Shown: positions 42,150 to 60,128 of the stretch, piece after piece | Position numbering within the stretch: position 1 is the first letter of the stretch | Layout: every line of letters starts with the position of its first letter | Origin: Gemmatimonadota bacterium | Lineage (GTDB): Bacteria; Gemmatimonadota; Gemmatimonadetes; Palauibacterales; Palauibacteraceae | NCBI GenBank assembly: GCA_046758745.1 | Contig: JBHIAV010000014.1 | Location: forward strand, 1 to 61,847 | Length of the DNA stretch: 61,847 bases | Direction of reading: 5' to 3' | Notes under the pieces: model-generated | What the model was told of the DNA's origin: nothing | Database searches by the model: none | The model's input: the letters and a program-made list of their open reading frames with translations, nothing else | Made by a program: the position numbers and the translations under genes

Positions 42150-42164
42150 TTGAGATGGCGGGCT

Positions 42165-42671
42165 GTGGACTTTCCGGACGCCTACAGAAGCCTGTATCCG
42201 GCGGTCTTTCGATATCTGAACCGGCTGACCGGAGACGCGGACCTCGCGGAGGACCTGGCTCAGGAGGCGTTCGTGCGCCTCCTGGAACGGGAGCTGCCGG
42301 AGGACGACGCGCGGGCGTGGATCTTTGCCGTGGCGACCAACCTGGCTCGCGATCATGCGCGGACGAGACGCCGGCGCCACAGGCTGCTGGAGGAGAGGCA
42401 GGTGCGTGCGGACAGTCCGGCTTGGCCGGACCACGAGGTCGAGCGAGCGGAGCGGATCGAGGCGGTTCGGCGGGCCCTGGCCGCGCTCTCCCCCCGCGAC
42501 CGTCAGATGCTCCTGATGCGAGAGGAGGGGTTCAGCTATCGGGAGATCGCCGAGGCGGTCGGTGTGCTCCCGGGTTCGGTCGGGACGCTGATCGCCCGGG
42601 CCCTGCAGCGGTTCGGTTCGGCGTATTCGACCCACTCCTCGGCAGAGAGAGGCGATGAGCCACCTGAGTGA
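42165..42671 (+). CDS. ECF sigma factor
   Basis: AEDLAQEAFVRL, ARAWIFAVATNL, LSPRDRQMLL..GFSYREIAEAVG. Confidence 0.92.
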   Translation: MDFPDAYRSLYPAVFRYLNRLTGDADLAEDLAQEAFVRLLERELPEDDARAWIFAVATNLARDHARTRRRRHRLLEERQVRADSPAWPDHEVERAERIEAVRRALAALSPRDRQMLLMREEGFSYREIAEAVGVLPGSVGTLIARALQRFGSAYSTHSSAERGDEPPE

Positions 42672-43416
42672 GACCCAGCTGCTGAGCTATCTGGACGGCG
42701 AGCTCTCGCAGAAGGCCAGCGAGGAGGTGGCCGCGCACCTCGGCGAGTGCGGGGAGTGCCGCGCGTCACTGGAGGCGCTGCGGCAAGCCGCTCGTCACTT
42801 CTCGGCGGCGGTGTCGCTGCTCGACGTCGAGGCGGAGGTGCCGCGGACGATTCCCGAGGGCCCGCGTCCGCGCCGCGTCCGCCCGCCGCGGCCCTGGAGG
42901 ACGCTCGCTCGAGCGGCCGTGCTGGTCCTCGCTCTCGCCGGAGTGGCATCGGCCGTGATCCCCGGCTCGCCCGTGCGCTCCTGGGTGGCGGCACTCCATC
43001 TCGGCGGAAAGGAGGAAGCCCCGATCGTCCCCACCGTAGGGCGAGAGGAACCGGCGCCGGAGGGAGAGAGGGGACCGGCGGGGGTCTCCGTGCTGCCGGA
43101 CGCGGGAGTCCTTCGGATACTTTTGACGAACTTCGCGCCGGAGTCTAGTGTGCGGGTTCGCCTGGTAGATGGGGCCGAAGCGCACGTGGAGGTGGGAGAG
43201 GACGCAGAAGCGCGCTTCCGGATCGGTCCGGGACGGATCGAGGTCTCGGGGAGCGGCCGGGGAGACCTGGTGGTCGACCTGCCGCGCTCCGCGCTGGAAG
43301 CCACGGTGGAGGTGGAGGGCCGCATCGCCGTGATGAAGAAGGGCAAGCAGCTCCGGCTGCTTCGGCCGGCGGTGGATTCGCTCCAGGGGGATGTGAGGTT
43401 CCGCATCGGGCCCTGA
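42655..43416 (+). CDS. Membrane-anchored zf-HC2 anti-sigma factor
   Basis: HLSE..L..YLDGEL..HLGECGEC; single TM. Confidence 0.85.
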   Translation: MSHLSETQLLSYLDGELSQKASEEVAAHLGECGECRASLEALRQAARHFSAAVSLLDVEAEVPRTIPEGPRPRRVRPPRPWRTLARAAVLVLALAGVASAVIPGSPVRSWVAALHLGGKEEAPIVPTVGREEPAPEGERGPAGVSVLPDAGVLRILLTNFAPESSVRVRLVDGAEAHVEVGEDAEARFRIGPGRIEVSGSGRGDLVVDLPRSALEATVEVEGRIAVMKKGKQLRLLRPAVDSLQGDVRFRIGP

Positions 43417-43549
43417 CAGGTCGCTTGGAATGCGACCCGCGGTGGGTTAGCTGAGACAGAGGCCGCACCCGGAGGGTTTCCCCCGGGGAGCGGCCGTTCC
43501 ACATTCTAGGCCGGACCACCGGGGTGTTCTTCTCAGCGTGGGCGGCTTG

Positions 43550-45787
43550 ATGACGGGTCTCTTCACTTTGCTGGCCAGCGTCGGGCTCGCGACGCAGCAG
43601 GCCTACGGTCTGGTCGAGGGATACGTTCGAAGCGCCGGGACGGACGAGCCTCTGGCGAACGGGCTCGTCACCGTGGTCGGCGGCTCCGCTCACCCCCGCG
43701 TGCTCACCGACTCGACGGGTCGTTACAGGCTCCCCGGTCTGCCCGCCGGGAAGCAGCGGATCCGCGCCACCCGGATCGGCTACACGCCGCTCGAGGTCGA
43801 GCTGATCGTGCCGCCCGCGGGCCGCATGCTGGTCGACTTCCTTCTTCCCCTCCGTCCCGTGTCCATGCCGCCGGTGGTGGCCGAGGCGGACGCCTCCCCG
43901 CCAGGACCGCGCTCCGCGGGCGACGGGGCGGAAGACACGGACATCGGTGAGCGGGGGACCGGTGCGGTCCGCGTGGTCGACGCGACGACCGGGATCTCCG
44001 AGTTCGGGATTCTGGCCGGCGCCCGGGCGCTGCAGCGGAAGCCGCGTCAGCCGAGAGGCCAGAACGTGCTCTTCGTGCGCGGGGCCGGAGCCAACCTCAA
44101 CCTGGTGCTGCTGGATGGCGCGCCCGTCCACACCCCCTTCCACCTCGGCGGGCTCCTGGAGCGGCCCGTTCCCGAGGCGATCGCGCGCGCCACGCGGTTT
44201 CAGGGCGGCGCTCCGGCCCGATTCGACGGCGGGCTCTCCGATGTCCTGCAGCTCGAGACCCATACGGGCTCTACGGGTCGGCCGCGCACGGCGGCCTTCG
44301 CGGACATGGTCTCCGCCGGCGGGCTCGCCGAAGGCGGTCTCGGCGAACGGGCCAGCATCCTCGCGGCCGGACGGACCCTGCACGGCGCCGCGAGCGGTCC
44401 CTTTCTCGACGAGGCCTTCCCGCAGCGCTACACGGACGGGCTCGCCCGGATCGATCTCCATATGGGGGCGGGCGGCGATCTCAGCGCGACCGGATTCTTC
44501 AACCGGGAGAGCGTGAACCTCGGCGGCGTGCGCCCCTCGAGCGAGCGGGCGGAGTGGGGGAACACAGCGGCCTCGCTCCGCTACGTGCACGCGGTGGGCC
44601 GCTCGATCGCCACCCTCGGGGCGGCGTTCGGAGAGTTCCGTACGGATCTCCCCCTTGGAACACAGGCACAGGTTCAGGCCGCGGGGCGGGTGCGCCGCAC
44701 TCGCATCACGGCGGATGTCGCCCGCCTCGTCGGTCCGGTCCGGCTGGGCTATGGCGCCCAGGTGGAGCGAATGCGGCTCCGCACCCGCTTCTCGGGCGTG
44801 CGTCAATTGAGCGGGGACTCCGTGAGGCTCGTGGCGGAGAGCCAGGGCGACACCTACTCGGGATACGTGGACGGCGCGTGGAACGTCTCCGACGACATCC
44901 GGCTGGGTGCCGGGCTCCGCGTGAACCTCTTCACGGAGGATCGGGGGCACAGCCTCTCGCCACGCGTCCGGGCCGAGTGGCGGCTCGCTCGGGGCGTGGC
45001 CCTCGACCTCTCCGCCGGCCGCTTCCACCAGCTCGTGGTCGCTCCGGACACGGCCGTGCCCCTCAGCCTCGCCTTCTTCACGGCCGGCGACGGGGGGCCT
45101 CTCGGCAACGCCTTCACCGACATCCGCGTCGCCGAATCCTCCCAGTTCGTGCTCGGCCTCGGCCACGAGGGGCCCGGCCTGGAGCTTCGCCTCGAGGGGT
45201 ACTGGAAGACGCTGGCAGGGGTCCCCGGGGCGGAGGACGAGCGTCTCCGGAGCACCGGCATCGACGTGTGGCTGCGACATGGATCCCAGGCCCTGAGCTT
45301 GTGGGCCACCTACACGATGGCGTGGGCGTGGGCCGAGGGGGAGCCGGGACTCCGAAGCGGGATCTTCTCCGGGCGTCACTTCCTGCGGGGCGGGGCCGCG
45401 ACGCTCCTGGCAGGCCGCTTCCGGCTGGAGGGAGACCTGGCGTTCGGGGCCGGGCTGGAGTTCGGGGCCCTCCCGGGTCCCAGCTTCGCCGCAACGGGTG
45501 CGGCGTCGGACGGTCCGGCCGGCGCGTCGCTCTCCAACGTGGACAGTCCCGGGGAGAGCCGGCTTCCCGACCCTGCCTACCTGCGGCTCAACCTGCGACT
45601 CACCGCCCTCATGCGGACACGGATTCTCGGGGTCGAGACGAAGCTGTATCCCTACGTCCGCGTGATCAACGCCCTCGGCCGGGCCGACGCGCTCTTCTAC
45701 CAGTTCGACGGCGAGGGCGATGGTGAGCCCCGAGCGGTCGGCGACGTGCCGCTCCTTCCGGTCCTCGGCATCGAGTGGAGAATGTGA
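43550..45787 (+). CDS. TonB-dependent receptor-like protein with carboxypeptidase-regulatory-like domain
   Basis: TDSTGRY..RIGY; plug-like LFVRGA..NLVLLDGAPV..GGAPARFDG.LS; C-terminal LGIEWRM. Confidence 0.8.
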   Translation: MTGLFTLLASVGLATQQAYGLVEGYVRSAGTDEPLANGLVTVVGGSAHPRVLTDSTGRYRLPGLPAGKQRIRATRIGYTPLEVELIVPPAGRMLVDFLLPLRPVSMPPVVAEADASPPGPRSAGDGAEDTDIGERGTGAVRVVDATTGISEFGILAGARALQRKPRQPRGQNVLFVRGAGANLNLVLLDGAPVHTPFHLGGLLERPVPEAIARATRFQGGAPARFDGGLSDVLQLETHTGSTGRPRTAAFADMVSAGGLAEGGLGERASILAAGRTLHGAASGPFLDEAFPQRYTDGLARIDLHMGAGGDLSATGFFNRESVNLGGVRPSSERAEWGNTAASLRYVHAVGRSIATLGAAFGEFRTDLPLGTQAQVQAAGRVRRTRITADVARLVGPVRLGYGAQVERMRLRTRFSGVRQLSGDSVRLVAESQGDTYSGYVDGAWNVSDDIRLGAGLRVNLFTEDRGHSLSPRVRAEWRLARGVALDLSAGRFHQLVVAPDTAVPLSLAFFTAGDGGPLGNAFTDIRVAESSQFVLGLGHEGPGLELRLEGYWKTLAGVPGAEDERLRSTGIDVWLRHGSQALSLWATYTMAWAWAEGEPGLRSGIFSGRHFLRGGAATLLAGRFRLEGDLAFGAGLEFGALPGPSFAATGAASDGPAGASLSNVDSPGESRLPDPAYLRLNLRLTALMRTRILGVETKLYPYVRVINALGRADALFYQFDGEGDGEPRAVGDVPLLPVLGIEWRM

Positions 45788-46095: not shown

Positions 46096-48000
46096 ATGCA
46101 GCAGACGGAACGTCCGCCCAGGAATCACCTCGACCTCCTCTTCCAGGCCAGCCTCGAGTTCAACTCGACGCTCGACCCCGACGCGCTGCTCTCTCGCGTC
46201 TTCGACCGGGTGGTCGAGATCCTCGAGGCGGAAGCCGGCTCGGTGTGGCTGCGCGAAGGCGACACGGTCGTGTGCCGGATCGCCAGGGGCCCGGTCGCGG
46301 AGCAGATCGAGGGGCTCGAGCTCCCGCTCGGGGCCGGCATCGTGGGCGACGTGGCCCGCCGGGGAGAGTCCGAGCTCGTCGCCGACGCGAGGGAGGACCC
46401 GAGGTTCGTACACCAGGTGGACGAGGCGACGGGGTTCACCACGCGCTCGGTCGTCTCCGTCCCGTTGAAGGCGAAGGGGCACGTGCTCGGCGTGCTCCAG
46501 GTCCTGAACAAGCGCTCCGGGTCCGGCCTGTTCGACGAGGCGGACCTCGCCCTCCTGGAGGGGCTCGCCTCCACGGCCGGGCTCGCTCTGCGCAACGCGC
46601 AGCTGCACGACGCCGAGAAGCGGGCGCACGACCTCGCCGCCCTGCTCGGCATCAGCCGAGAGATCACCTCGACGCTGGACACGGACCGGCTCGCCGTCTC
46701 GGTCGTCAACCTGGCCAGCCAGACGCTGGCGTACGATCGCGCGGCGATCGCTCTCGAGGAGGGCGGTCGATTCGTCCTGCGGGCGATCTCCGGGCAGGAG
46801 ACGGTGGACGTCGGTTCCGAGGACACCCGCACACTCGAGCGCCTCATCGCATGGCTGGCGGAGCGGGACGAGCTGGTCTACCTGCCCGACTTCTCCGTCG
46901 GCGAGGACGGCATCGGGGCCGACCTGCGAAGCGTCTTCGGCGATCACCTCGAGGGCCGGGGCGTCCGCTCGCTCTGCCTCATTCCCCTCAAGGACGAGGA
47001 AGGGCGGCTCGGCGCGTTCTACATGGAGTCCGGGAGACCGGACTTCCTCGGCGAGACGGGCCACGAGGCGGCGGAGCTGCTCGCCAACCAGGTGTCCGTC
47101 GCCGTTCGAAACGCCGACCTGTACGGGCAGGTCCCGTTCATCGGCCTTCTGGAGCCGCTGGCGGCGTGGCGCCGCCGGCTCGCCGCCATGCCCCGCCGCG
47201 CGCTGATCCGTCGCTACGGCATCCCCGCACTCGTCGTCATCGGGCTCATCAGCATCCCGTGGGCCGAGCGCATCACGCCGAGCGATGTACAGCTGCTGCC
47301 CGCCGATCGGATGCCCGTGCGGGCCACCGTGCGAGGCCTGCTCACCGAGATCCGCGTGAGCGAGGGCGACGAGGTCGAGAAAGACCAGGTGATGGCCGTG
47401 CTGCGCGATGACGAGCTGCGCATGGAGCTGCAGGAGGTTCGCTCTTCCCTCATGGCGGCCGAGCGGCGAGCCGCGGTGGCCCGGGCCCGCGGCGACGAGC
47501 CCGGCGCGCAGCTCGCCCAGGTCGAGGCGCGAGAGCTCTCGGCGCGCATGGAGCTGCTGAACGATCAGCTCGAGAGGACCCGGCTACAGGCGCCCGTGGG
47601 GGGGGTCGTCCTCACCTTGCGGCCGTACGAGATGCTGGGCGAGTGGCTGGAGGCCGGAGAGACGTTCGTCGTCCTCGGCCGTACGGGGCAGCTCGAACTG
47701 GAAGCCCGGGCCGCACAGCGTGACATCGAGCGGGTGCGGGTGGGGCAACGGGTCCGGCTGAAGGTCCCGGCGCAGCCGAACCACATCTTCGTCGGCAGGG
47801 TGACGGAGATCGCGCCGAGCGCCGACGCGGCGCCCGGTGGCGAGCCGACCTTCGTCGTGCGGGCGGGCCTCGACAACGGACAGGGGCTGCTCAAGCCCGG
47901 CATGGAGGCGAGGGCCAAGATCGTCGGCGCGCGCCGCCCCATCGGCTACCTGCTGGCCCGCCCCCTCGTGCGCTGGATTCGACTTCGCTTCTGGCGGTGA
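46096..48000 (+). CDS. GAF-GAF-TM-HlyD (membrane fusion protein) fusion
   Basis: GAF1 GIVG.V..DPRF..VDEATGFTTRS..VPL..NK..FDEAD; second GAF; TM; lipoyl-hairpin VSEGDEVEK..APVGGVV; LKPGM. Confidence 0.9.
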   Translation: MQQTERPPRNHLDLLFQASLEFNSTLDPDALLSRVFDRVVEILEAEAGSVWLREGDTVVCRIARGPVAEQIEGLELPLGAGIVGDVARRGESELVADAREDPRFVHQVDEATGFTTRSVVSVPLKAKGHVLGVLQVLNKRSGSGLFDEADLALLEGLASTAGLALRNAQLHDAEKRAHDLAALLGISREITSTLDTDRLAVSVVNLASQTLAYDRAAIALEEGGRFVLRAISGQETVDVGSEDTRTLERLIAWLAERDELVYLPDFSVGEDGIGADLRSVFGDHLEGRGVRSLCLIPLKDEEGRLGAFYMESGRPDFLGETGHEAAELLANQVSVAVRNADLYGQVPFIGLLEPLAAWRRRLAAMPRRALIRRYGIPALVVIGLISIPWAERITPSDVQLLPADRMPVRATVRGLLTEIRVSEGDEVEKDQVMAVLRDDELRMELQEVRSSLMAAERRAAVARARGDEPGAQLAQVEARELSARMELLNDQLERTRLQAPVGGVVLTLRPYEMLGEWLEAGETFVVLGRTGQLELEARAAQRDIERVRVGQRVRLKVPAQPNHIFVGRVTEIAPSADAAPGGEPTFVVRAGLDNGQGLLKPGMEARAKIVGARRPIGYLLARPLVRWIRLRFWR

Positions 48001-48866
48001 AGATGAAGGTGAAGATGAACAGGATCAGAAGCCTTTCACTCTGGCTGGGCAGCGTGGGGCTGGCGGCATCCGTCGTCTCCTGCGCGCAGGAGATCGAGTC
48101 CAGTCCGGATACGGACGGGACGACCGAGCGCCGAACGACCCTGGCGGCCGCGACTCCGGAGGAGAGATCGGACGACCTCTACCAGACCCACCTGTACTCC
48201 GAGCGAGACGCCGACGTGTACGCCCGGCTGGACGAGGACGAGCTGAGCGGGAGTGGCCTGCCGGTGGTGGCCATCCACGTGGAGATCGGGGATGCCGTGG
48301 GCGCGGGACGCCTTCTCGCCACCCTGGAGGACGCCGAGGCGAAGCTCGCCGTCGAGGAGGCTCGAGCGGAAGCCGACGCGGCGAGGGTCAACTTCGAGCG
48401 CATCCGGGAGCTCCGCGAGCGGGAGGTCGTCTCGCCCTCCGAGTACGACGATGCGCTGTACGAAAACCGCCGTGCGCAGGCGGCGCTCCAGCGCGCCGAG
48501 CTGAACCTCGCGCGGACCCGCGTGCGGGCTCCCTTCGCCGGCGTGGTCTCCCGGCGCTACGTGCGCGTGGGAGAACTGGTCGAGGAACGAACGCCCCTCT
48601 TTCGGATCACGGCGCTCGCCCCGCTCCGGGCGCGGCTGCTGGTGCCGGAGGCAAGGGCGGGCGCGTTCAGCCTCGGAGCCACGGTGCGTCTCACGGCGGC
48701 GGATGGGACGACCGGAGAGGCTCCCGTCATCCTCATCGGGCCGACGGTCGACCCGGCCAGCGGCATACGGGAGGTGATCGTAGAGCTGCCGGAGGCCGGA
48801 GCGTTCAAGCCCGGCGCGGCGGTGGTGGCCGAGCTGGTCGGGGAGGACGTGGGGATCGATCGGTGA
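47997..48866 (+). CDS. Periplasmic adaptor / membrane fusion protein (HlyD-like), lipoprotein signal
   Basis: GTGA overlap; signal ..VVSC; VEIGDAV..; RAPFAGVV; PTVDPASG; FKPG. Confidence 0.88.
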   Translation: MKMKVKMNRIRSLSLWLGSVGLAASVVSCAQEIESSPDTDGTTERRTTLAAATPEERSDDLYQTHLYSERDADVYARLDEDELSGSGLPVVAIHVEIGDAVGAGRLLATLEDAEAKLAVEEARAEADAARVNFERIRELREREVVSPSEYDDALYENRRAQAALQRAELNLARTRVRAPFAGVVSRRYVRVGELVEERTPLFRITALAPLRARLLVPEARAGAFSLGATVRLTAADGTTGEAPVILIGPTVDPASGIREVIVELPEAGAFKPGAAVVAELVGEDVGIDR

Positions 48867-50929
48867 GCTCCGCCCTCGAGTCGCGCCCGAAGCTGCGAGA
48901 AGACCTCAAGATCGTGAGGCGGGAGGTCCGCGGTAAGGTCCACTACATCGTGAAGCTGCCGGCCGAGGGCAAGTACTTCCAGTTCGGAGAGACGGAAGTC
49001 CGCCTCATGGAGCTCATGGACGGCCGCCGCACTCCGGAGAGAATCGCCGACGCCGCCCGGGAGGTCCTGGGCGCCCGTCCGCACGCCGGCCAAGTGGCCG
49101 ATTTCGCCCACAGGCTGAAGCGACTCGGGCTGGTGGAGCGGACTCCGGTCGAGAAGCACCTGATGCTGATGGAGCACCTCCGGGCCCAGCGGAAGGTGAG
49201 GACGCGGCGCCGCGCCAAGGGATCCATCCTCAGGCTCACCTTCTCGATCGGGGACCCCGACCGATGGTTCGAGCGGGTGGTCGCACGCCTCGGATGGGTG
49301 TGGTCCCCCGCGTTCGTCGGGGCGTCGGTCGCCCTCTTCGCGGTGTACTTCCTCATCCTCGGCTACCGGTGGGACGAGTTCTGGGAGGGGACCGCCGGGC
49401 TCGTAACGCTCTCGGGCTTCGGGGCGACGGACTGGATTCTCTTCTACCTCATCGTGCTGGTGGTGAGCGTGATCCACGAGCTCGGCCACGGTCTCACCAC
49501 CAAGTACTTCGGAGGGGAGGTGCACGAGATCGGGGCCATGGTGCTGTACTTCAGCCCCGCGCTCTTCTGCAACACGAACGATGCATGGACGTTCGAGCGG
49601 CGCTCGCATCGCCTGTGGGTGACCTTCGCCGGGCCGTGGATCGAGCTCGTGCTCACCGCGCTGGCAGCGATCGTTTGGGTGACGACGGAGCCGGGAACTC
49701 TTCTCCACCTCCTCGCCTTCCTCGCCGTGCTGGCAGGCGGGATCGTGGCGGTGGTGATGAACTTCAACCCCCTCCTCCCCCTGGACGGCTACTACGCGCT
49801 CTCCGACTGGCTGGAGATCCCCAATCTGCGGGGGCGCGCCTTCGCCTACTGGGGATGGATCGGGAAGCGCTTTCTCCTCGGGGTGGACGCGCCGCCTCCC
49901 CCCGCGACCCCACGCGAGCGGAGGATCCTGATCGTGTACGGCGGCTTGGCCCTGCTGTACAGCGCCCTCACCGTGGCGCTCTCCCTCTGGTGGCTCATCA
50001 GCGTCGTTGGCCGCTTCCTCGGCCCGTGGGTGTGGGTGATCCTCGCGGTCATCGCCGGCAGGGTGGTGCTGCGCCTCGCCGGACGCTCCCGCATGCTCGC
50101 CCTCGCCGCCAGCACCGCATGGCAGGCGGGATTCCTCCGCGGGCGGCGGGCCGCCCTGCTGACCGCAGGAACCGTCCTCCTGGTCGGCCTCCCGTTCGCG
50201 ATCCCGTGGACGCTGCGGGCCCGGGGGGAGTTCCTCGTGGAGGCCGCTCCCCGCGTCCAGGTGCGGGCCGAGGCGCCGGGCATGCTGGATCGGCTTCACG
50301 TGCGGGAGGGCGACACGGTAAGCGCCGGGCAGTCCCTCGCGACGCTGTGGAGCCCGGAGCTGGAGGCGACGTTCGCGGCGGCTGTGGCGCGCCTCGAGCG
50401 GCTCCGCTTGACGCGTGCGCAGGGGGGGAGCCGGGACGATCTCCCGATGGCCGCCTCGGCGGAGGCCAGCCTGGAGGGAGCGCAGCGGGAGTTCGAGGTG
50501 GTCCGCGCCGAGAGGGAGCACTTGGCGATCCTCTCCCCCATCGACGGAGTCGTGCTCGGCTACCGGCTCCGGGAGCACCTCGGGCAGGCCGTCGAGCGCG
50601 GCGAGCTGTTGCTGGAGGTGGCCCCGATCGACGCCCGCACGGCGCGAGTGCGGGTGCCGATGAAGTGGGCCGGGGAGCTGGCAGCCGGACAGCGCGCGAA
50701 CCTGAAGCTCTCGGCGGCGGCCCACCTGAAGTTCCGGGGGACGGTCGCCAGGGTCGCCCCGGCGGCCGAGGAAGGCTGGCTGGAGGTCGAGGTCCCCTTC
50801 CCGACCGGGGGCTGGCTGCCGGCGCCGGGGATGATCGGCATCGCCAAGATCGCCACCCGCCGGACCACCGTGGCGGGCGCGATCGTGCGCGCGTGGCGAC
50901 AGACGGTGCGGAGCGAGCTGTGGCTCTGA
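48863..50929 (+). CDS. RRE/PqqD-like domain + M50 (site-2) intramembrane metalloprotease + HlyD fusion
   Basis: N-terminal beta3-alpha3-like YIVKLP..KYFQFG..LMDGRRT..IA..LGLVE; HELGH; NFNPLLPLDGYY; C-terminal VREGD.V..SPIDGVV..PGM. Confidence 0.88.
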   Translation: MSSALESRPKLREDLKIVRREVRGKVHYIVKLPAEGKYFQFGETEVRLMELMDGRRTPERIADAAREVLGARPHAGQVADFAHRLKRLGLVERTPVEKHLMLMEHLRAQRKVRTRRRAKGSILRLTFSIGDPDRWFERVVARLGWVWSPAFVGASVALFAVYFLILGYRWDEFWEGTAGLVTLSGFGATDWILFYLIVLVVSVIHELGHGLTTKYFGGEVHEIGAMVLYFSPALFCNTNDAWTFERRSHRLWVTFAGPWIELVLTALAAIVWVTTEPGTLLHLLAFLAVLAGGIVAVVMNFNPLLPLDGYYALSDWLEIPNLRGRAFAYWGWIGKRFLLGVDAPPPPATPRERRILIVYGGLALLYSALTVALSLWWLISVVGRFLGPWVWVILAVIAGRVVLRLAGRSRMLALAASTAWQAGFLRGRRAALLTAGTVLLVGLPFAIPWTLRARGEFLVEAAPRVQVRAEAPGMLDRLHVREGDTVSAGQSLATLWSPELEATFAAAVARLERLRLTRAQGGSRDDLPMAASAEASLEGAQREFEVVRAEREHLAILSPIDGVVLGYRLREHLGQAVERGELLLEVAPIDARTARVRVPMKWAGELAAGQRANLKLSAAAHLKFRGTVARVAPAAEEGWLEVEVPFPTGGWLPAPGMIGIAKIATRRTTVAGAIVRAWRQTVRSELWL

Positions 50930-51636
50930 GCCGGCAGCAGCAGCACGAGGAGCTGCTGAGCGCGGCGCGCGACTTCTCCTTCCTGAAGGGGGCGGACGAG
51001 TCGGCCCTCGAGGAGTTGGCCGCTCTCGCCGTCTGCCACGACTATCCGAAGAACAACATCCTCTTCTACCGGGGAGAGCCGGCGGGACCCGTATTGCTCG
51101 TCGTGAAGGGCAGGGTGAAGCTGATCCTGGACAACGAGGAGGGGCGCGAGGTCGTGGTGAGGCTGCTGAGACCCGGCGGGCTCTTCGGACTGATCGCGGC
51201 GCTGGACGGCGGTCCGCAGGCGGCTACGGCGGTGGCGGTCACCAAGTCGCGGCTCGCCAGGTTCGAGGGCGACGCCTTCGTCGGGTGGATGACCCGTCAT
51301 CAGGTGACGCACGAGACGTTCCTGCGGGAGTTCGGGCAGCGGGTGCGGGAGGCATATCACAGGATCGGGGAGCACGCCCTGCTCGGCGTGAAGGAGCGGC
51401 TGTGGTCCACCCTGCTCGAGATCGCCGAGCGGGAGGGCGAGCCGGACCCCGGGAGCGAGGAGATCGTCTTCACCCGGCCGACGCACCAGGAGCTGGCGCA
51501 CCGGATCGGCTCCAGCCGGGAGGTCGTCACGCGCCTCCTCAAAGAGCTCCTGGAGAGCGATCTCCTCGAGGCCGAGGGCCGGGTGATCCGCGTCTCGGAG
51601 TCCGCCCTCATCCTGCACGACGAGCTGGCCGATTGA
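50920..51636 (+). CDS. Crp/Fnr-family transcriptional regulator
   Basis: cNMP-binding fold ILFYRGEP..VKGRVKL..EGREVV..PGGLFG; HTH THQELAHRIGSSREVVTR; buried in the 49264-51636 ORF, GTG 50920 start. Confidence 0.92.
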   Translation: MALSRQQQHEELLSAARDFSFLKGADESALEELAALAVCHDYPKNNILFYRGEPAGPVLLVVKGRVKLILDNEEGREVVVRLLRPGGLFGLIAALDGGPQAATAVAVTKSRLARFEGDAFVGWMTRHQVTHETFLREFGQRVREAYHRIGEHALLGVKERLWSTLLEIAEREGEPDPGSEEIVFTRPTHQELAHRIGSSREVVTRLLKELLESDLLEAEGRVIRVSESALILHDELAD

Positions 51637-51722
51637 GCCGCGCAGGACGCGTGCGAGGGGCCGGCGGCCCGGCGAAGCGCCCCGGCCGGGCGACGCCTGC
51701 GAGGCGGGTTCGTCGCCGGAAG

Positions 51723-51738
51723 TGTGACGAACGTCACA
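51723..51738. promoter_or_regulatory. CRP-type operator TGTGA-N6-TCACA
   Basis: TGTGA CGAACG TCACA, perfect consensus, directly downstream of crp gene. Confidence 0.8.
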
Positions 51739-51942
51739 TGGTTCCGGCTGCCGTCGTCACGTGTGCTTGCGCCCTGGGAGCACGGCCGGACCCCGGAGTC
51801 GGCGCACATCCGGCGGCCGCCTGCGGTCACGGTCCCCTCGTGCCGTCCGTCCTAACACCCTGGCGAGCGATCCGGTACCTTTGGATCGTCCGGCCCGACG
51901 GAAACATCGGGCAGCCCACCGATCCCAGCGCGGAGGCACACC

Positions 51943-52092
51943 GTGGAGAAGAAGGAGAAGATCCGCATCCAGCTCACCGAGGAGCAGAAGCGGCAGATCC
52001 GCGAGTCCACCGGGAAGGAGGCCGCGGCGATCGAGCTGACGGTCGAAGAGCTCGAGAACCGGGTCTCCCCGCGCCTGGCCAGGCCGCAGTAG
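51943..52092 (+). CDS. 49-aa putative precursor peptide MEKKEKIRIQLTEEQKRQIRESTGKEAAAIELTVEELENRVSPRLARPQ
   Basis: RBS GGAGG at 51932-36, GTG start, TAG at 52090-92, nearly all codons G/C-ending, own terminator; below ORF-track size cutoff. Confidence 0.85.
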   Translation: MEKKEKIRIQLTEEQKRQIRESTGKEAAAIELTVEELENRVSPRLARPQ

Positions 52093-52117
52093 CGCCAGTT
52101 CCCTGTCTCAAGCCAAC

Positions 52118-52160
52118 ACGCGGGGTGGCCGCTTCGGCGGTCACCCCGCGTCGTCTTTTC
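52118..52160 (+). terminator. Intrinsic terminator after peptide gene
   Basis: ACGCGGGGTGGCCGC-TTCG-GCGGTCACCCCGCGT then CGTCTTTTC. Confidence 0.75.
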
Positions 52161-52180
52161 CACCACCACCCGTCCGCACC

Positions 52181-55100
52181 GTGACCCACCCGCTCCCCGA
52201 AGGCAGCGCCGCCTGCCCGGAGTGCGGGGCCCGGTGCTCACCGGATGCCGCCTTCTGCTCCGCGTGCGGCGTGAATCTCGGCTCGCTCGGGGTGGAGGCG
52301 GAGCGTCGGGTGATCACGGTGATGTTCGCCGATCTCTCGGGCTTCACGCCGCTCACCGAGCGCCTCGACGCGGAGGAGGTGCACGCGCTCATCGCCAGCT
52401 TCCTGCACCCCCTGTGCGACTGCGTGACGCGGTGGGGCGGCTTCGTCGACAAGTTCATCGGGGACTGCGTGATGTCGCTCTTCGGCGCCCCGCTCGCGTA
52501 CGAGAACGAGCCGGAGCGCGCCGTGCGGGCGGCGCTCGACATGCACGCCGCGCTCCACCGATGGGCCGAGGAGGGGGGGCCGGGGGGGGCGAAGATCGAT
52601 CCGTCGTCCCTCCAGCTCAGCATCGGGATCAACACCGGCCCGGTGGTGACGGGGCTCTTCTCGGGTGGGGGCGCCCGGGACTACACGGCGATCGGGGACA
52701 CGGTGAACGTCGCCTCTCGCCTCCAGGGGGTGTGCGCGCCGGGGCAGATCCTGGTGGGGCCGGACACGTACGAGCAGACGAAGCACGTGTTCGAGTACGG
52801 AGGGGCGCAGCTCCTCCGCGTGAAGGGACGGCGCGAGCCGGTGGGCGCTCGCTACGTGGTCGGGTTGCGGGCGGAACGGGGCGAGGTTCGCGGCTTCCGC
52901 GGACGCCGAATCCCCCTGGTGGGGCGCGCTCGCGAGCTGGAAGAGCTTCGGGAGCGGTGGAGGAGCGCGTCGCAGGGTCGGTTCGAGCTCTGCGTGCTGT
53001 CGGGCGCTCCCGGCATCGGCAAGTCACGCCTCCTCGAAGAGCTGGTGCGCGTCGAGGGGCTCGAGCCCGAGGAGGTGGCCACCTCCCGCTGCTATCCGTA
53101 CGCGCGCAGCACCCCCTGGGAGCCGGTGGCCGAGCTGATCCGCGACCTGCACGGCCTCCCGCCGGACTGTCCGGCCGCCGAGGCCGCCGCGGCGATCGTG
53201 CACGGCACGCCAGGCGACTGGCTGCCCGACGATGCGGCGGTCCTCGCCGTAGTCCTCGGGGGCTCGGCGGAGGGGGTGCCGCGGCTCGAGGACCAGGGCC
53301 CCGAGGAGCGCCTGGCCAGCCTCGCCGGCGCGGTGGCCCGCGCCCTCGGCACGAGCGAGGCCGGACCCCGCCTGCTCATCGCGGAAGACCTGCACTGGGC
53401 CGACCGGACGACGCTGGAGTTCCTGCACCGTGTGCCCGACCTCGAGATCCCGGGTCCCATGCTGATGGTTCTCGTCACGCGGCCGCCCGTGCCCGGAGAG
53501 CGGCTCATCGCCCGACTCCTCGACCGCATCGAGGCGCGCGTCGAGCTCGGCCCCCTGCCGCAGGAGGTGTCGCGGGAGCTCATCGACGCGCTGCTCGGTT
53601 TCCACCGGCTTCCCGACGAGCTGGTGCGGCTGATCGTCGAGCGGGGTGACGGCAACCCCCTGTTCATCGAGGAGATCCTCAAGTCCCTGGTGGAGCGGGG
53701 CGATCTCCGCCTCGAAGGCGGGGTGTGGCGGACGTCTCTCGATGGCCGGAGCCTCGGGGCTCAGGTCCCCGATTCCATCGAGACCCTCATGAGCACCCGG
53801 ATCGACCAGCTCGATCAGTCCACCAAGCGGGTGCTCCAGTACGCGGCGATCGTCGGGCGGCGCTTCTGGTCCGGGGTGGTGGCCGACGTCATGGCGCGCA
53901 AGCCGGTCGATCGCGAGCTCGACGACCTCGTCGAGAGCCATTTCGTGCGTCCCGAGTCGGATTCGCTCGTCTCCGGAGACAAGGAGTTCATGTTCGAGCA
54001 CCTCCTGCTCCAGGAGGTGGCCTACGACGGCCTCCTGCGCGGGCTGCGGGCCCAGCTTCACGGAGCCGTCGCCGCGTGGCTGGAAGAGCATCTGGCGGAT
54101 CGGTCCCCGGAGTACGACGACTGGGTGGCCTACCACCACGAGCGCTCGAAGGAGCCGGGACGGGCTCTTCCCTTCCTGGAACGGGCCGCCGCGCGGGCGA
54201 GCGCGCGGGGCGCCCTGCTGGACGCGGCTTCGCTGGCCGAGCGCGCACTCGCGGTGGCCCCGGGGCCGCAGGAGCAGCTTCGTCTTCTCGGACTGGTGGA
54301 AGAGATCGCCGCCGTGATGGGGGACGAGAAGCGGCGCGAGGAGGCGATCGAGGAGCTCGAGGCGCTTGCTCGCCTGCATGGGGACGAGGCGATCGGGGCG
54401 GAGGCAGGATACAGGCGGGCCCGGCGCCTCCTCGCCACGGGAGAGCTGGCTCGGGCGCGCGCGGTCGCCGAAGAGGCGATGGCGACGTTCGAGGGGCTCA
54501 AGAACATCGACAGGCAGGGAGACTGTGCCGCGCTGCTCGGCAGGGTGGCGCACCTGTGGGGGGAGTACCCGGAAGCCCTCGCGCGCTACAGGTCGGCTCT
54601 GCCTCCACAGCGCGAGGTCGGCGATCGGCAGGGCGAGGCGGAGATACTCGATCGGCTGGGCCTCGTGGAGATCGACCGCGGCGACTTCACGCGGGCCCTC
54701 GACTACTTCGAGACCGCCGCCGAGCTCTTCCGGCTGCTGGGCAACCGGCCGATGGAATCCCGCGTGCTGGCCCACCGGGCGACCGCGGTGCGATGGCTCG
54801 GCCTCCTGGAGGAAGCCGAGGCGCTCGCCGGCGAGGCGGGAGCGATCGCCCGCTCCTGCGGATCGCGGCGTGCCGGGGCCTCCGCGGAGCTGACGCTGGG
54901 CATCGTGCTGGTCGCCATGGGGCGCCGCGAGGAAGCGACGGCGATCCTGGCCGAGGTGTGCCGCCGTGCGGAGGAGCTTCGGCGTCCGGGGCTCGCGGCG
55001 CGGGCCTGGCTCGCCCTCGGGGAGCTGGAAAGCGGCGAGGAGGGGCTGCGGTGCCTCGCCCGCGCGCGGGAGGCGGCGCGGGGAGCCGGGCTCGTGCACA

Positions 55101-55429
55101 TCGCCATCCTGGCCGCGAGCCGCGAGGCGGAGCTGGCGCTGGAGAGTGGAGACACCGCGGCGGCGGACCGCGCCTCCCGCGAGGCGATCGAGGGACTTCG
55201 TCGGCACGGCAACATCCAGGGTCCGGAGGAGGAGGTGCTCTACACGCGAGCGCGAGCGCTCCTCGCGCTCGGACGCGACGGGGAGGGGCGCGATCTCCTC
55301 CGCGAGGCCCGCGAGGCCATCCACCACAAGGCAGGACTGATCGAGGATCCCGAGCTGCGCCGGCGTTTCCTCGATGAGGTCACGATGAACCGCCAGATCC
55401 TCGGCGCGCCCAGCCAGGCAGCGAGATGA
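52181..55429 (+). CDS. Zn-ribbon + class III adenylyl cyclase + STAND-type ATPase + TPR protein
   Basis: CPECG..CSACG; FADLSGFT, DKFIGD, YTAIGDTVNVASRL; Walker A GAPGIGKS; EDLHWAD; GNPLFIEE; TPRs. Confidence 0.92.
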   Translation: MTHPLPEGSAACPECGARCSPDAAFCSACGVNLGSLGVEAERRVITVMFADLSGFTPLTERLDAEEVHALIASFLHPLCDCVTRWGGFVDKFIGDCVMSLFGAPLAYENEPERAVRAALDMHAALHRWAEEGGPGGAKIDPSSLQLSIGINTGPVVTGLFSGGGARDYTAIGDTVNVASRLQGVCAPGQILVGPDTYEQTKHVFEYGGAQLLRVKGRREPVGARYVVGLRAERGEVRGFRGRRIPLVGRARELEELRERWRSASQGRFELCVLSGAPGIGKSRLLEELVRVEGLEPEEVATSRCYPYARSTPWEPVAELIRDLHGLPPDCPAAEAAAAIVHGTPGDWLPDDAAVLAVVLGGSAEGVPRLEDQGPEERLASLAGAVARALGTSEAGPRLLIAEDLHWADRTTLEFLHRVPDLEIPGPMLMVLVTRPPVPGERLIARLLDRIEARVELGPLPQEVSRELIDALLGFHRLPDELVRLIVERGDGNPLFIEEILKSLVERGDLRLEGGVWRTSLDGRSLGAQVPDSIETLMSTRIDQLDQSTKRVLQYAAIVGRRFWSGVVADVMARKPVDRELDDLVESHFVRPESDSLVSGDKEFMFEHLLLQEVAYDGLLRGLRAQLHGAVAAWLEEHLADRSPEYDDWVAYHHERSKEPGRALPFLERAAARASARGALLDAASLAERALAVAPGPQEQLRLLGLVEEIAAVMGDEKRREEAIEELEALARLHGDEAIGAEAGYRRARRLLATGELARARAVAEEAMATFEGLKNIDRQGDCAALLGRVAHLWGEYPEALARYRSALPPQREVGDRQGEAEILDRLGLVEIDRGDFTRALDYFETAAELFRLLGNRPMESRVLAHRATAVRWLGLLEEAEALAGEAGAIARSCGSRRAGASAELTLGIVLVAMGRREEATAILAEVCRRAEELRRPGLAARAWLALGELESGEEGLRCLARAREAARGAGLVHIAILAASREAELALESGDTAAADRASREAIEGLRRHGNIQGPEEEVLYTRARALLALGRDGEGRDLLREAREAIHHKAGLIEDPELRRRFLDEVTMNRQILGAPSQAAR

Positions 55430-55443
55430 GAAGGCAGGCGAAG

Positions 55444-55577
55444 GGCGACGCTTCGGCGCGCCGGGACGACCCGGCCCGCTCGGGCGCTCCGGCCCACGGG
55501 AATGCCTCGGTCCGTCCGGACGGCCCGGCCCGTTGGGGCGCTCCGGCCCACGGCGACGGTTCGGTCCATCCGGACGC
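55444..55577. repeat. Intergenic tandem repeat, about 2.5 x 54 bp
   Basis: Units 55464-55517 and 55518-55571 (GGACG.CCCGGCCCG.T.GGGCGCTCCGGCCCACGG...). Confidence 0.8.
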
Positions 55578-55595
55578 CCCGGAGCGGAGAGCCCC

Positions 55596-55985
55596 GTGAC
55601 GCAGGATTGGGCGATTCTGCTCCTCGGCCTGCTCGTCGCCCACTTCCTGGGTGACTTCACACCCCTCGCCACGGCCCGCATGCAGGAGGCCAAGGCGAAC
55701 GCGGGCCCCATGTCGCAGGTCGCCGCGCACGCCGCCGTGCACGGGCTGCTCGTCGGCCTCGTGGTCGCGCTCCTGTCGGTCTCGAGCTGGGGGCTGATCG
55801 CCGCGGCGGCGGGGATCGAGTTCGCGACGCACTTCCTGATCGATGCCGCCCGTGCCCGCGCCGGCTTGTACGTGGCGACGCTCCGGGATCCAGCGCGTCC
55901 GGCGTTCTGGCGCGTCCTCGGCGCGGACCAGCTCGCCCACCAGCTCGTTCTCGTCTTCCTGGCGGTCCTGGTCCTGAGGGCCTGA
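55596..55985 (+). CDS. DUF3307-family membrane protein
   Basis: AHFLGDF..H..VH..THFLID..DQLAH. Confidence 0.85.
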   Translation: MTQDWAILLLGLLVAHFLGDFTPLATARMQEAKANAGPMSQVAAHAAVHGLLVGLVVALLSVSSWGLIAAAAGIEFATHFLIDAARARAGLYVATLRDPARPAFWRVLGADQLAHQLVLVFLAVLVLRA

Positions 55986-58865: not shown

Positions 58866-60128
58866 ATGGCCGTCTCGTTCGACCGGCTGAAGGCCGCCCT
58901 CGAGGACCGCTACGACGTCGAGCGCGAGCTCGGACGCGGCGGGATGGCCACCGTCTACCTGGCCCGGGACCTCAAGCACCACCGCCGGGTGGCCATCAAA
59001 GTGCTCCTCCCGGAGCTCGGCGTCGCGCTCGGTGCGAAGCGCTTCCTGCGCGAGATCGAGATCTGCGCGCAGCTCGCGCACCCCCACATCCTTCCCCTGT
59101 ACGATTCCGGCGAGGCGAGCGGCTACCTCTACTACGTCACGCCGTACCTCGAGGGGGAGACGCTCCGGGAGCGCCTGAAGCGCGAGCGCCAGCTACCGCT
59201 CGAGGACGCGCTGCGGATCACCCTGGAGGTGGCCGACGCGCTCGCCCACGCCCACGCGCACGACGTGGTGCACCGGGACATCAAGCCCGCCAACATCCTC
59301 CTCTCCGGCGGTCACGCCATCGTCGCCGACTTCGGCCTGGCGCGCGCGATCACACTGGCGGGAGGCGAGAGGCTCACCCAGACGGGCTTCGCCGTGGGCA
59401 CGCCGGAGTACATGAGCCCCGAGCAGGCACGGGGAGAGGAGAGCCTCGACGGCCGGAGCGACGTGTTCTCCCTCGGCTGCGTGCTGTACGAGATGCTGGC
59501 CGGGCGGCCGCCCTTCACCGGCCGTACCCCGCAGGTGATCATGGCCAGACGCATGAGCGAGCCGCCCTCTCCCCTCGGCCGCCTCCGGGAGGCCGTTCCA
59601 CCCGGGGTCGAGATGGCGGTGAACAAGGCGCTGGCGAAGAACCCCGTCGATCGCTTCCCGACGATGGAGAAGTTCGCGGAGTCGCTGGAAAGGGCGGTCG
59701 ACCCTCTGTCGGGGAGCGGGCCGAGCATCCCCGTGCCCGTCTCCGGAGTCTCGCGGGCGGTCCCGTCCTTCTGGGAGGAGCTCAGGCGCCGGGAAGTCTA
59801 CAACACCGGGTTCGTTTACGCGGTGGTGGCGTGGCTCCTGGTGCAGATCGTGGAGACCACCTTTCCCTACCTCGGCCTCTCCGATCAGGCTGTCACGGCG
59901 GTGATCGTGGTGGCGATCGCCGGCTTCCCCATCGCGCTCGGCCTCTCCTGGGCGTTCGAGATCACCCGGGAAGGGATTCGGCGCACCCAGCCGGTGGAGA
60001 TCGCGGGGGACGCCTCGCCGAGCGGGAGGTGGTGGGTCTCGAAGCGGACGCTCGTCGTGCTGGCCATCCTGCTCGCCCTCGCCGCCGCAGGGTGGTGGTG
60101 GCTGGACCGCCTCCCGGGGCCCTCGTAG
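58866..60128 (+). CDS. Hanks-type Ser/Thr protein kinase with C-terminal TM segments
   Basis: GRGGMATV, VAIK, HRDIKPAN, DFG, GTPEYMSPEQ; FWEELRRR.V + 3 TM. Confidence 0.93.
   Translation: MAVSFDRLKAALEDRYDVERELGRGGMATVYLARDLKHHRRVAIKVLLPELGVALGAKRFLREIEICAQLAHPHILPLYDSGEASGYLYYVTPYLEGETLRERLKRERQLPLEDALRITLEVADALAHAHAHDVVHRDIKPANILLSGGHAIVADFGLARAITLAGGERLTQTGFAVGTPEYMSPEQARGEESLDGRSDVFSLGCVLYEMLAGRPPFTGRTPQVIMARRMSEPPSPLGRLREAVPPGVEMAVNKALAKNPVDRFPTMEKFAESLERAVDPLSGSGPSIPVPVSGVSRAVPSFWEELRRREVYNTGFVYAVVAWLLVQIVETTFPYLGLSDQAVTAVIVVAIAGFPIALGLSWAFEITREGIRRTQPVEIAGDASPSGRWWVSKRTLVVLAILLALAAAGWWWLDRLPGPS

Follow-up and report, generated by a model that had tools for sequence, protein, structure and literature searches.

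In this study we characterized a locus in a 61,847-nt stretch of DNA, hereafter the window, from a Gemmatimonadota bacterium of the family Palauibacteraceae (assembly GCA_046758745.1, contig JBHIAV010000014.1, positions 1 to 61,847 of the forward strand; G+C content of about 70%), and we argue that it probably represents a widespread route by which bacteria with two membranes could cut short peptides and probably release them with no transport pump. The locus combines a gene for a 49-amino-acid (aa) precursor peptide with genes for a membrane protease fused to a HlyD-type adaptor, two further adaptors, a Crp-family regulator, and an adenylate cyclase. We propose with modest confidence that these parts form a leader-guided peptide maturation and release system. 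The cytoplasmic RiPP recognition element (RRE) of the M50 site-2-type protease would hold the acidic 43-aa leader of the precursor, and the protease would cut at or just after the motif E-x-R-x-(A/S)-P, freeing a short basic tail (RLARPQ in the window); in relatives whose precursors bear repeats, a cut at each cassette boundary would free several tandem cassettes. The cut peptide would most likely be passed outward via the adaptor assembly, since the protease is fused to a periplasmic arm and co-translated with a lipoprotein adaptor and a GAF adaptor, and this assembly would probably dock on an unlinked TolC-type channel. The co-transcribed Crp-family regulator would switch production at the peptide promoter, the cyclase-STAND-TPR protein would supply a cyclic-nucleotide input whose likeliest receiver would be the first GAF domain (GAF1) and not Crp, and the supply of precursor would be set by lineage-specific sensors. 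What we infer in this model is that the peptide is bound, cleaved, and exported, and also where the cut falls, which ligands act, and what biological role the system has; for this role we favor a species-specific extracellular signal because of the patchy distribution of the system, its hypervariable tails, and its dedicated sensors.

Organization of the locus

The argument is built on computed features, namely the domains, the RRE fold, the protease motifs, a linkage seen in two phyla, the leader and tail architecture, and the regulatory sites. The parts of the locus, which include a transmembrane (TM) adaptor and a short open reading frame (ORF), are the following:

46096-48000, + strand: adaptor 1, GAF-GAF-TM-HlyD gene (Pfam GAF, E 3e-30; HlyD_D23, E 2.8e-18)
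47997-48866, + strand: adaptor 2, short HlyD gene (Pfam HlyD_3, E 4.1e-17; NCBIfam RND_mfp)
48863-50929, + strand: RRE/M50/HlyD protease-adaptor gene (Pfam HlyD_3, E 1.9e-17, M50, and PqqD; NCBIfam)
50920 (alternative start 50893) to 51636, + strand: Crp/Fnr-family gene (cNMP_binding, E 1.2e-19; HTH_Crp_2, E 1.5e-11)
51723-51738, no strand: perfect CRP-type palindrome TGTGA-N6-TCACA, 220 nt 5' of the peptide start codon
51827-51881, + strand: conserved promoter-proximal block of putative function (invariant columns in an alignment of 15 orthologous upstream regions)
51932-51936, + strand: ribosome-binding site GGAGG, 6 nt ahead of the GTG start (direct reading of the sequence)
51943-52092, + strand: 49-aa precursor peptide ORF with a GTG start (leader of 43 aa, tail of 6 aa)
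52118-52160, + strand: intrinsic terminator-like hairpin followed by a T run (15 pairs, 12 of them G-C)
52181-55429, + strand: zinc ribbon/class III adenylate cyclase/AAA_16 STAND/TPR gene (Pfam)

A first-pass annotation of this DNA had described the genes, the box, the terminator, and the 49-aa ORF preceded by a ribosome-binding site, and all of these are present on the + strand at the places it gave. Successive overlaps of 4, 4, and 10 (or 37) bases join the first four genes, and adaptor 2 has a GTGA start/stop overlap at each end. Adaptor 2 exceeded the cut-off of NCBIfam RND_mfp (139 bits against 94.9), the cyclase gene matched Pfam Guanylate_cyc (E 2.5e-20), AAA_16 (E 1.2e-18), and TPR_12 (E 2.6e-10), and the terminator scan returned one hairpin against a mean of 0.3 in shuffled sequences.

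The protease-adaptor

The chain of the protease comprises the RRE (residues 1-112), the M50 site-2-type core, and a HlyD-type adaptor at about residues 450-688. An AF2 model of residues 1-112, computed from an alignment of 32 sequences, reached a pLDDT of 86 and shows a winged-helix fold in which a sheet of three strands (16-22, 25-32, and 37-41) precedes four helices; its top Foldseek matches were PqqD 5sxy, TbiB1 5v1u/5v1v, 6jx3, and the PbtF RRE 8t19 (probability 1.00, E 1.9e-4 to 2e-3), among which are leader-bound RREs of lasso peptides and thiopeptides. According to this model the N-terminus has an RRE fold, which bears out the earlier claim of an RRE-like domain made where Pfam PqqD matches weakly (E 0.0027), and the protease is predicted to bind and thereby to be able to read leaders. 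A sequence search of the PDB with the RRE-M50 part found no match.

The catalytic core scored just above the Pfam Peptidase_M50 (PF02163) cut-off (27.6 bits against 27.2) and carries the motifs HELGH at 205-209 and NPLLPLDG at 302-309. Across 149 relatives H205, E206, and H209 are invariant, and N300, N302, P303, D308, and G309 are invariant or nearly so; both HExxH and NxxPxxxLDG, the marks of site-2 proteases (MEROPS M50), are conserved throughout the relatives. The best named model was NCBIfam daptide_HExxH (NF041824), with E 1.1e-58 over residues 28-411.

The family is very large: a search with the RRE-M50 part returned 10479 representatives at E <= 0.001, of which 2065 reached E <= 1e-30, and HlyD domains were present in 51 of 52 sampled full-length protease representatives. 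Among Atlas look-alike clusters of the protease the commonest phyla were Planctomycetota, Pseudomonadota, and Acidobacteriota. Literature searches found no description of an M50-HlyD peptide system and no published substrate for the protease-adaptor family.

Precursor peptides

The window peptide consists of a 43-aa acidic leader ending ELENRVSP and a 6-aa basic tail, and this anatomy recurs among the 69 distinct peptide sequences that we compared, of which 67 matched the strict motif. In these 67 the leaders measure 41-45 aa, carry a mean charge of -2.8, and end E-L-E-x-R-(I/V/T)-(A/S/T/M)-P, while the tails span 4-24 aa (median 8), carry a mean charge of +1.9, and are rich in R, P, K, and G. 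It is the leader, and not the tail, that is strongly conserved; the tails are hypervariable (66/67 distinct). Proline is placed nonrandomly in them, at position 5 in 24/63 and at position 1 in 0/68, so that the tail echoes the end of the leader. Three members of the window's clade carry 2-4 tandem RKAMP-like pentapeptides, and the peptides of relatives contain 3-20 tandem units that mostly end (R/K)-x-x-P, like the leader end. Loci often hold two or three peptide copies, each with its own GGAG-type ribosome-binding site.

When 8000 candidates were scored with a profile built from 38 peptides, at least 3952 proteins matched at E <= 0.001, and these were annotated only as "hypothetical" or, wrongly, as "DUF1192". 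When Pfam and NCBIfam were run on the peptides at a permissive E value, only low-complexity or sub-threshold matches appeared (DUF1192, HC2, TRH precursor), with no LEPR-XLL-type model among them. In a six-frame search of the host genome (87% complete) with the leader profile, the 49-aa ORF was the sole match, in single copy, and hence there is no large protein with that leader there.

Under the strict RiPP definition, which asks for a post-translational modifying enzyme, none was found conserved beside the peptide genes apart from an S-adenosylmethionine (SAM)-dependent methyltransferase that lies among the peptide genes of one Gemmatimonadota subclade (L052:6130-6891 and L053:11059-11856). 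The tails of L052, L053, and L061 are conserved and end IGTFF instead of being hypervariable, and this subclade may be a modified, RiPP-like branch.

Linkage in Gemmatimonadota and Acidobacteriota

One genome per species was scanned, which yielded 80 loci with protease relatives. Peptide homologues were found by tblastn in 49 of these 80 loci, and in 28 of the 30 that have enough flank (4 kb or more upstream, 1.6 kb or more downstream), with L002 and L027 as the two misses. In L002 the cyclase gene directly follows Crp without a peptide gene, and in L027 the protease match ends at residue 623. The peptide gene stands after Crp in the window's clade and in Longimicrobiales and before the operon in Gemmatimonadales; its position thus differs by clade, which argues for a linkage kept through rearrangement. 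Of the 57 loci with 3 kb or more of flank, 56 have both other adaptors directly upstream of the protease gene. L020 alone departs from this: there GAF residues 8-260 run straight into protease residue 141, and the locus is rearranged or mis-assembled; L020 and L021 come from different bins and have identical peptide regions.

Linkage extends to a second phylum. In Acidobacteriota 42 of 301 genomes gave a match at E <= 1e-60 that takes in the protease part (a count that includes the unpublished genomes G426 and G554), and of 20 regions taken from this phylum all 20 had a protease-adaptor match and 19 also a GAF-adaptor gene; L095, the only region whose GAF-adaptor gene was scanned, has three GAF domains. 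In 10/20 regions the protease gene faces a convergent gene that encodes a homologous leader and lies no more than 500 nt from the end of the protease gene; the peptide profile gave no match in the other 10/20, by which absence is not shown. Nine of the 10 acidobacterial peptide genes encode the leader followed by long tandem repeats of 5-12 residues, in about 5 to about 20 copies, and most repeat units end (R/K)-x-x-P.

With 28/30 Gemmatimonadota loci and 10/20 Acidobacteriota regions, the 49-aa ORF is a genuine gene found together with the HlyD/M50 genes. The first-pass annotation had expected Crp and the cyclase to share this linkage; the expectation held for the peptide, and Crp and the cyclase fall outside the conserved core. 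Indeed, a cyclase-bearing STAND gene was present in 11/80 loci, where it adjoins the peptide gene, and Crp in 26 of the 57 loci whose downstream flank measured 0.8 kb or more.

The distribution of the protease is patchy, with 53/401 Gemmatimonadota genomes (two unpublished ones, G057 and G182, are counted in this tally) and 24/148 genera. We considered a housekeeping role and rejected it because only these 53/401 genomes have the protease. The full arrangement of the window's clade was also seen in L003 and L023, with protease identities of 60% and 48%; their bins bear the labels Akkermansiaceae and Thermoanaerobaculia, whether through mis-binning or through recent transfer.

Adaptors and membrane topology

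The locus encodes three HlyD-type domains, the membrane-fusion component of tripartite efflux and type I secretion. By hydropathy, adaptor 1 has one TM helix at residues 369-388 between its two GAF domains and its HlyD-type membrane-fusion domain, adaptor 2 has a signal- or lipoprotein-like N-terminus (hydrophobic at 12-30, then VVSC), and residues 145 to 451 of the protease hold about seven helices. This would place the GAF and RRE parts in the cytoplasm and the three HlyD parts in the periplasm.

Searches for pumps, channels, and SecA

The locus had been said to lack a linked ABC or RND pump or TolC, and searches of the whole contig and of about 100 loci agree. None of the genome's 37 ABC_tran, 11 ACR_tran, and 12 OEP matches lies on contig C14, MFS pumps being outside the search. 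Neither a TolC homologue nor a SecA_DEAD homologue was found in 100 loci (0/100 for each). A motif scan detected an ABC-like ORF in 2/101 loci, both more than 4.7 kb away, with about half the sensitivity of Pfam (19 ORFs against 37 matches, about 30 of them strong, in the window's own genome). Elsewhere, the genome (87% complete) holds one SecA_DEAD match, a 1170-aa frame that is the housekeeping SecA, and six TolC-family genes on contigs C35, C28, C60, C11, C41, and C46; five of the six adjoin RND pump genes, and the C46 gene has no RND match on its contig. With SecA_DEAD absent from every one of the 100 loci searched, the SecA-less, peptide-linked form is thus a stable variant across two phyla and not a one-off loss.

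Regulation of the peptide gene

What is regulated in every lineage is the peptide gene; from one lineage to the next only the regulator beside it differs. In the window's clade a CRP-type box scoring at least 8/10 lies 170-245 nt upstream of 21/22 peptide genes (at least 9 in 16 of them), against a score of at least 8 in only 2/41 peptide genes of Gemmatimonadales, which are without Crp, and an average of 6.5 in shuffled sequences. No CRP box was found upstream of the adaptor operon. Closer to the gene, the conserved block comprises an everted TCAC...GTG dyad (51827-51842), TCCT (51850-51853), and a -10-like TACCTT (51876-81); in the aligned upstream regions a -10-like TAnnnT recurs about 60 nt ahead of the start codon, and a sigma-70 consensus scan found no site.

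Longimicrobiales have Crp without any cyclase gene, in a five-gene unit placed between housekeeping genes, and a TGTAAC-N4-GTCAC-like site at 111-149 nt in 7/7 peptide genes. In Gemmatimonadales a divergent Trans_reg_C/BTAD/AAA_16 (SARP-STAND) gene adjoins the peptide genes, at least two TTCACG direct repeats with 11-nt spacing lie 60-110 nt upstream of 33/41 of them, and Ser/Thr kinase genes of about 276 aa and about 855 aa lie 3' of the protease gene. These kinases (L048:12909-16370, L038:13065-16618, and similar examples), with the SARP-STAND gene on the other side, resemble together with it the AfsK/AfsR pairing. A kinase of the same BLAST cluster is encoded in the window at 58866-60128. 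In Acidobacteriota the peptide gene comes after genes for a HAMP histidine kinase and an NtrC-type activator, and the sigma-54 promoter TGGCA-N7-TTGC lies 52-79 nt upstream in 7/10 peptide genes, with near matches in the other 3. Around the acidobacterial modules (L095-L114), STAS and FHA-GAF-SpoIIE genes of the partner-switching type recur, and a cNMP_binding-FHA gene lies near the module in 3 loci.

Possible cyclic-nucleotide input

The nearest solved relative of the cyclase is Pseudomonas aeruginosa CyaB (3r5g, E 1.1e-29), with which it shares FxDxxGFT, DKFxGDCVM, GINTG, and VNxASRL; we take these to be the metal, substrate, and transition-state motifs of the class III catalytic domain, and the cyclase domain looks active. 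The Crp protein has a cNMP-binding domain, a C-terminal helix-turn-helix (HTH), and the TGTGA-N6-TCACA target, and it scored 86 bits against a cut-off of 266 with the NCBIfam CRP model. However, it lacks a Glu and an Arg which we take to be the cAMP contacts of the phosphate-binding cassette, and segments of 20 Crp orthologues likewise read FGL or CGL and have Q, H, or N where the Arg would stand. For want of this Glu and Arg, a step from cyclase through cAMP to Crp seems doubtful.

GAF1 is the likeliest and better candidate receiver, as it is most similar to the cNMP-binding GAFs of PDE5 (E 2.6e-22), PDE10A, CyaB2, and PDE2A, its closest solved relatives. A cyclic-nucleotide input at the GAF adaptor is thus plausible, and the GAF fusion is also found in lineages without a cyclase in the locus. 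The earlier proposal that cyclic nucleotide couples both expression and gating is therefore weakened on the side of Crp, whose cassette is non-canonical, and retains some footing in the resemblance of GAF1 to cNMP-binding GAFs. Separately, an Atlas cluster of proteins of about 690 aa, whose commonest phylum is Chloroflexota, has cNMP_binding in 97% and Peptidase_M50 in 46% of its members and aligns structurally to protease residues 1-426 (TM 0.49); it offers a second, independent hint of a cyclic-nucleotide link to the protease family.

Comparison with known systems

The locus is a relative of the daptide-type leader peptidase and of a type I secretion (T1SS)-like module published in 2015, and it is not categorically new. 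The available part of the daptide report describes precursors with an ELExMEAP leader motif trimmed by an RRE-fused site-2 protease, clusters with MpaB/C/D/M-type modifying enzymes, ABC transporters, and a C-terminal Thr that does not vary, an origin in Actinomycetota, Bacillota, and one Pseudomonadota cluster, and haemolytic, membrane-active products (bioRxiv 10.1101/2023.03.08.531785). The window protease resembles daptide MpaP/DapP in its N-terminal RRE followed by an HExxH M50 core, and its peptide resembles daptide precursors in the ELE-x-x-x-x-P leader motif and in the several precursors often found per locus; the leader ends ELEERIAP/ELENRVSP come close to ELExMEAP. Unlike the window protease, daptide proteases have no HlyD arm, and neither the modifying enzymes nor the ABC transporters of daptides were found near the window locus or among the conserved neighbor clusters. 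The last residue of the window peptide is Q, and the final residue differs widely among tails, with no invariant C-terminal Thr.

Kamneva, Poudel, and Ward (2015; PMC4452313) described a module in which M50/HlyD, HlyD, and GAF/HlyD genes accompany a secondary SecA_DEAD ATPase and, in some cases, OEP, and, in the part of the paper available, proposed type-I-like secretion with M50 as a possible inner-membrane pore and left the substrate and function open. The putative channel of the first-pass annotation, made of three adaptors with M50 in the inner membrane, had thus been put forward before for this related module. The likeness is close, with the same three adaptor-bearing proteins together, the GAF and M50 fusions included, but neither the SecA_DEAD nor the OEP of that module occurs here in 100 loci. 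That available part of PMC4452313 names no RRE, substrate, or regulators.

Other systems share single features with the locus. In CvaAB-TolC and RaxABC, double-glycine leaders are removed by a C39 cysteine peptidase that forms one protein with an ABC pump, the source of the energy; common to them and to our locus are a leader-removing protease in an export machine and a membrane-fusion protein with TolC for a small peptide, whereas here the protease is a zinc site-2 enzyme fused to an adaptor with no ATPase linked. In Firmicutes, the substrates of the Eep/RseP-matured pheromones and the Phr pentapeptides are signal-peptide-like or Sec-exported. Site-2 maturation, short C-terminal species-specific peptides, and an adjoining TPR regulator gene are shared with them, but they have neither RRE nor adaptors and a single membrane to cross. 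The Gemmatimonadales STAND protein, with Trans_reg_C and BTAD and 11-nt-spaced direct repeats before the peptide genes, resembles AfsR/SARP, whereas the window STAND protein has a cyclase output instead of a DNA-binding domain. Finally, a Crp-family protein and a TGTGA-N6-TCACA box hold the corresponding position in the window and recall CRP-type activation, from which the window differs in that its Crp is without canonical cAMP contacts.

Alternative explanations

Several points weigh against maturation and release as we propose them. Binding, cleavage, and export by the locus are steps predicted from sequences and models. No energy source or inner-membrane conduit could be identified, and the outward movement of a cationic peptide would oppose the membrane potential. 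Site-2 proteases are known for cutting membrane-embedded or hydrophobic segments, and the tails here are hydrophilic. Some tails have only 4 residues and a few repeat families are without Pro, so that the proposed cut site is not general. The match to the daptide protease model, at 199.3 bits, does not reach the family cut-off of 300. On the regulatory side, the alignment of Crp reads FGL...PQAATA where Mycobacterium tuberculosis CRP has FGE...PRTSSA; the box by itself is not above chance, as 38 of 100 window shuffles give at least one match at up to one mismatch, and it carries weight because it is conserved at the same place in related loci; and if the -10 is real, the perfect box would lie near -157, which is unusual for direct CRP activation.

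A reading without export, which we consider unlikely, would make the locus an intracellular switch, in which the periplasmic adaptor arms control the protease, as sensors of the envelope or anchors to it, and a leader or tail fragment acts in the cytoplasm, e.g., on the STAND TPR or on Crp. It would fit the lack of a linked pump, ATPase, or outer-membrane channel in about 100 loci, the strong conservation of the leader and not the tail, the STAND-TPR gene that directly adjoins the peptide gene in two different arrangements, the non-canonical ligand pocket of Crp, and the classical place of site-2 proteases in regulated proteolysis. But three membrane-fusion domains with helical hairpins of AcrA length are a large investment for a sensor, the HlyD arm is kept in nearly all sampled relatives (51/52), hypervariable tails and tandem cassettes are what one typically sees in released products, and the acidobacterial neighbor sensor is a membrane HAMP histidine kinase, which fits a signal from outside. 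Export may also be real and its products cationic effectors instead of signals, either antimicrobial or membrane-active, or polycations that bind the cell's own envelope, the matrix, or extracellular DNA. The net positive tails rich in R, K, P, and G, the long acidobacterial lysine/arginine repeats that match histone-H1-like low-complexity models, and the patchy occurrence across genomes and genera (53/401 and 24/148) would suit such products, as would the haemolytic and membrane-active daptides, whose protease is the closest named relative, in the part of the report at hand (bioRxiv 10.1101/2023.03.08.531785). We nevertheless doubt it, only slightly less than we doubt the intracellular switch: tails of 4-8 residues, such as the one in the window, fall short of the length of known pore-forming or matrix-binding peptides, the locus has no conserved immunity gene next to it, and in every lineage the peptide gene is paired with dedicated sensors and regulators, as in autoinducing circuits.

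Least probable by far is that the locus is a remnant or variant of a SecA_DEAD type-I-like module for large proteins with a similar N-terminal tag, the peptide being a regulator, decoy, or chaperone and not the cargo. The co-occurrence of M50/HlyD, HlyD, and GAF/HlyD with SecA_DEAD, and sometimes OEP, in the available text of PMC4452313 speaks for it. The search results run the other way, with SecA_DEAD in 0/100 loci and only a housekeeping SecA in the 87% complete genome, the 49-aa ORF alone matching the leader profile in six frames, and a SecA-less small-peptide form that is stable across two phyla.

Leader-guided maturation and release of the peptide therefore remains the explanation that we favor. 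It can be extended to a more daring form, tentative and in our view improbable, though less so than any of the three rivals above, in which the RRE-guided site-2 protease itself serves a pump-less three-adaptor conduit as its inner-membrane gate and releases species-specific autoinducers of about five residues, at times in many copies from a single tandem-cassette precursor, which lineage-specific sensors read, so that the whole would be a peptide quorum-sensing family of Gemmatimonadota and Acidobacteriota. With the same tentativeness, the sensors would be the STAND-TPR cyclase, the SARP-STAND protein with Ser/Thr kinases, and the histidine kinase with the NtrC-type regulator.

Implications

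An unnamed peptide family of at least 3952 sequence clusters, matching no Pfam or NCBIfam model, is brought to light together with the 2065 representatives of its protease-adaptor at E <= 1e-30, and the orphan module of 2015 gains a candidate cargo, a candidate recognition mechanism in the RRE, and a set of regulators. If export is true, peptides would cross a two-membrane envelope without an ABC pump, and abundant soil and sediment phyla would use short ribosomal peptides, possibly as signals. The Gemmatimonadota version, with one 49-aa precursor and four co-translated genes, is convenient for reconstitution.

Neighboring genes and other observations

Rfam gave only a chance-level miRNA match on 51600-52250, and among public sequencing runs no RNA run was listed, the four holders being of DNA type (type guessed) and from a single hydrothermal-vent study. 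Directly upstream of the locus, on the same strand (42155-45787), lie ECF sigma, zf-HC2 anti-sigma, and CarboxypepD_reg/Plug/TonB-dependent-receptor-like genes; considered as parts of the system, they were rejected because they are not kept beside the trio in related loci. On the other side, 3' of the cyclase gene, stands one further gene:

55533-55985, + strand: DUF3307 membrane protein gene (Pfam DUF3307, E 1e-10)

A DUF3307 homologue lies directly 3' of the cyclase gene in 8 loci (L002, L003, L006, L009, L016, L017, L018, and L028), and the gene may be a member of a clade-specific unit.

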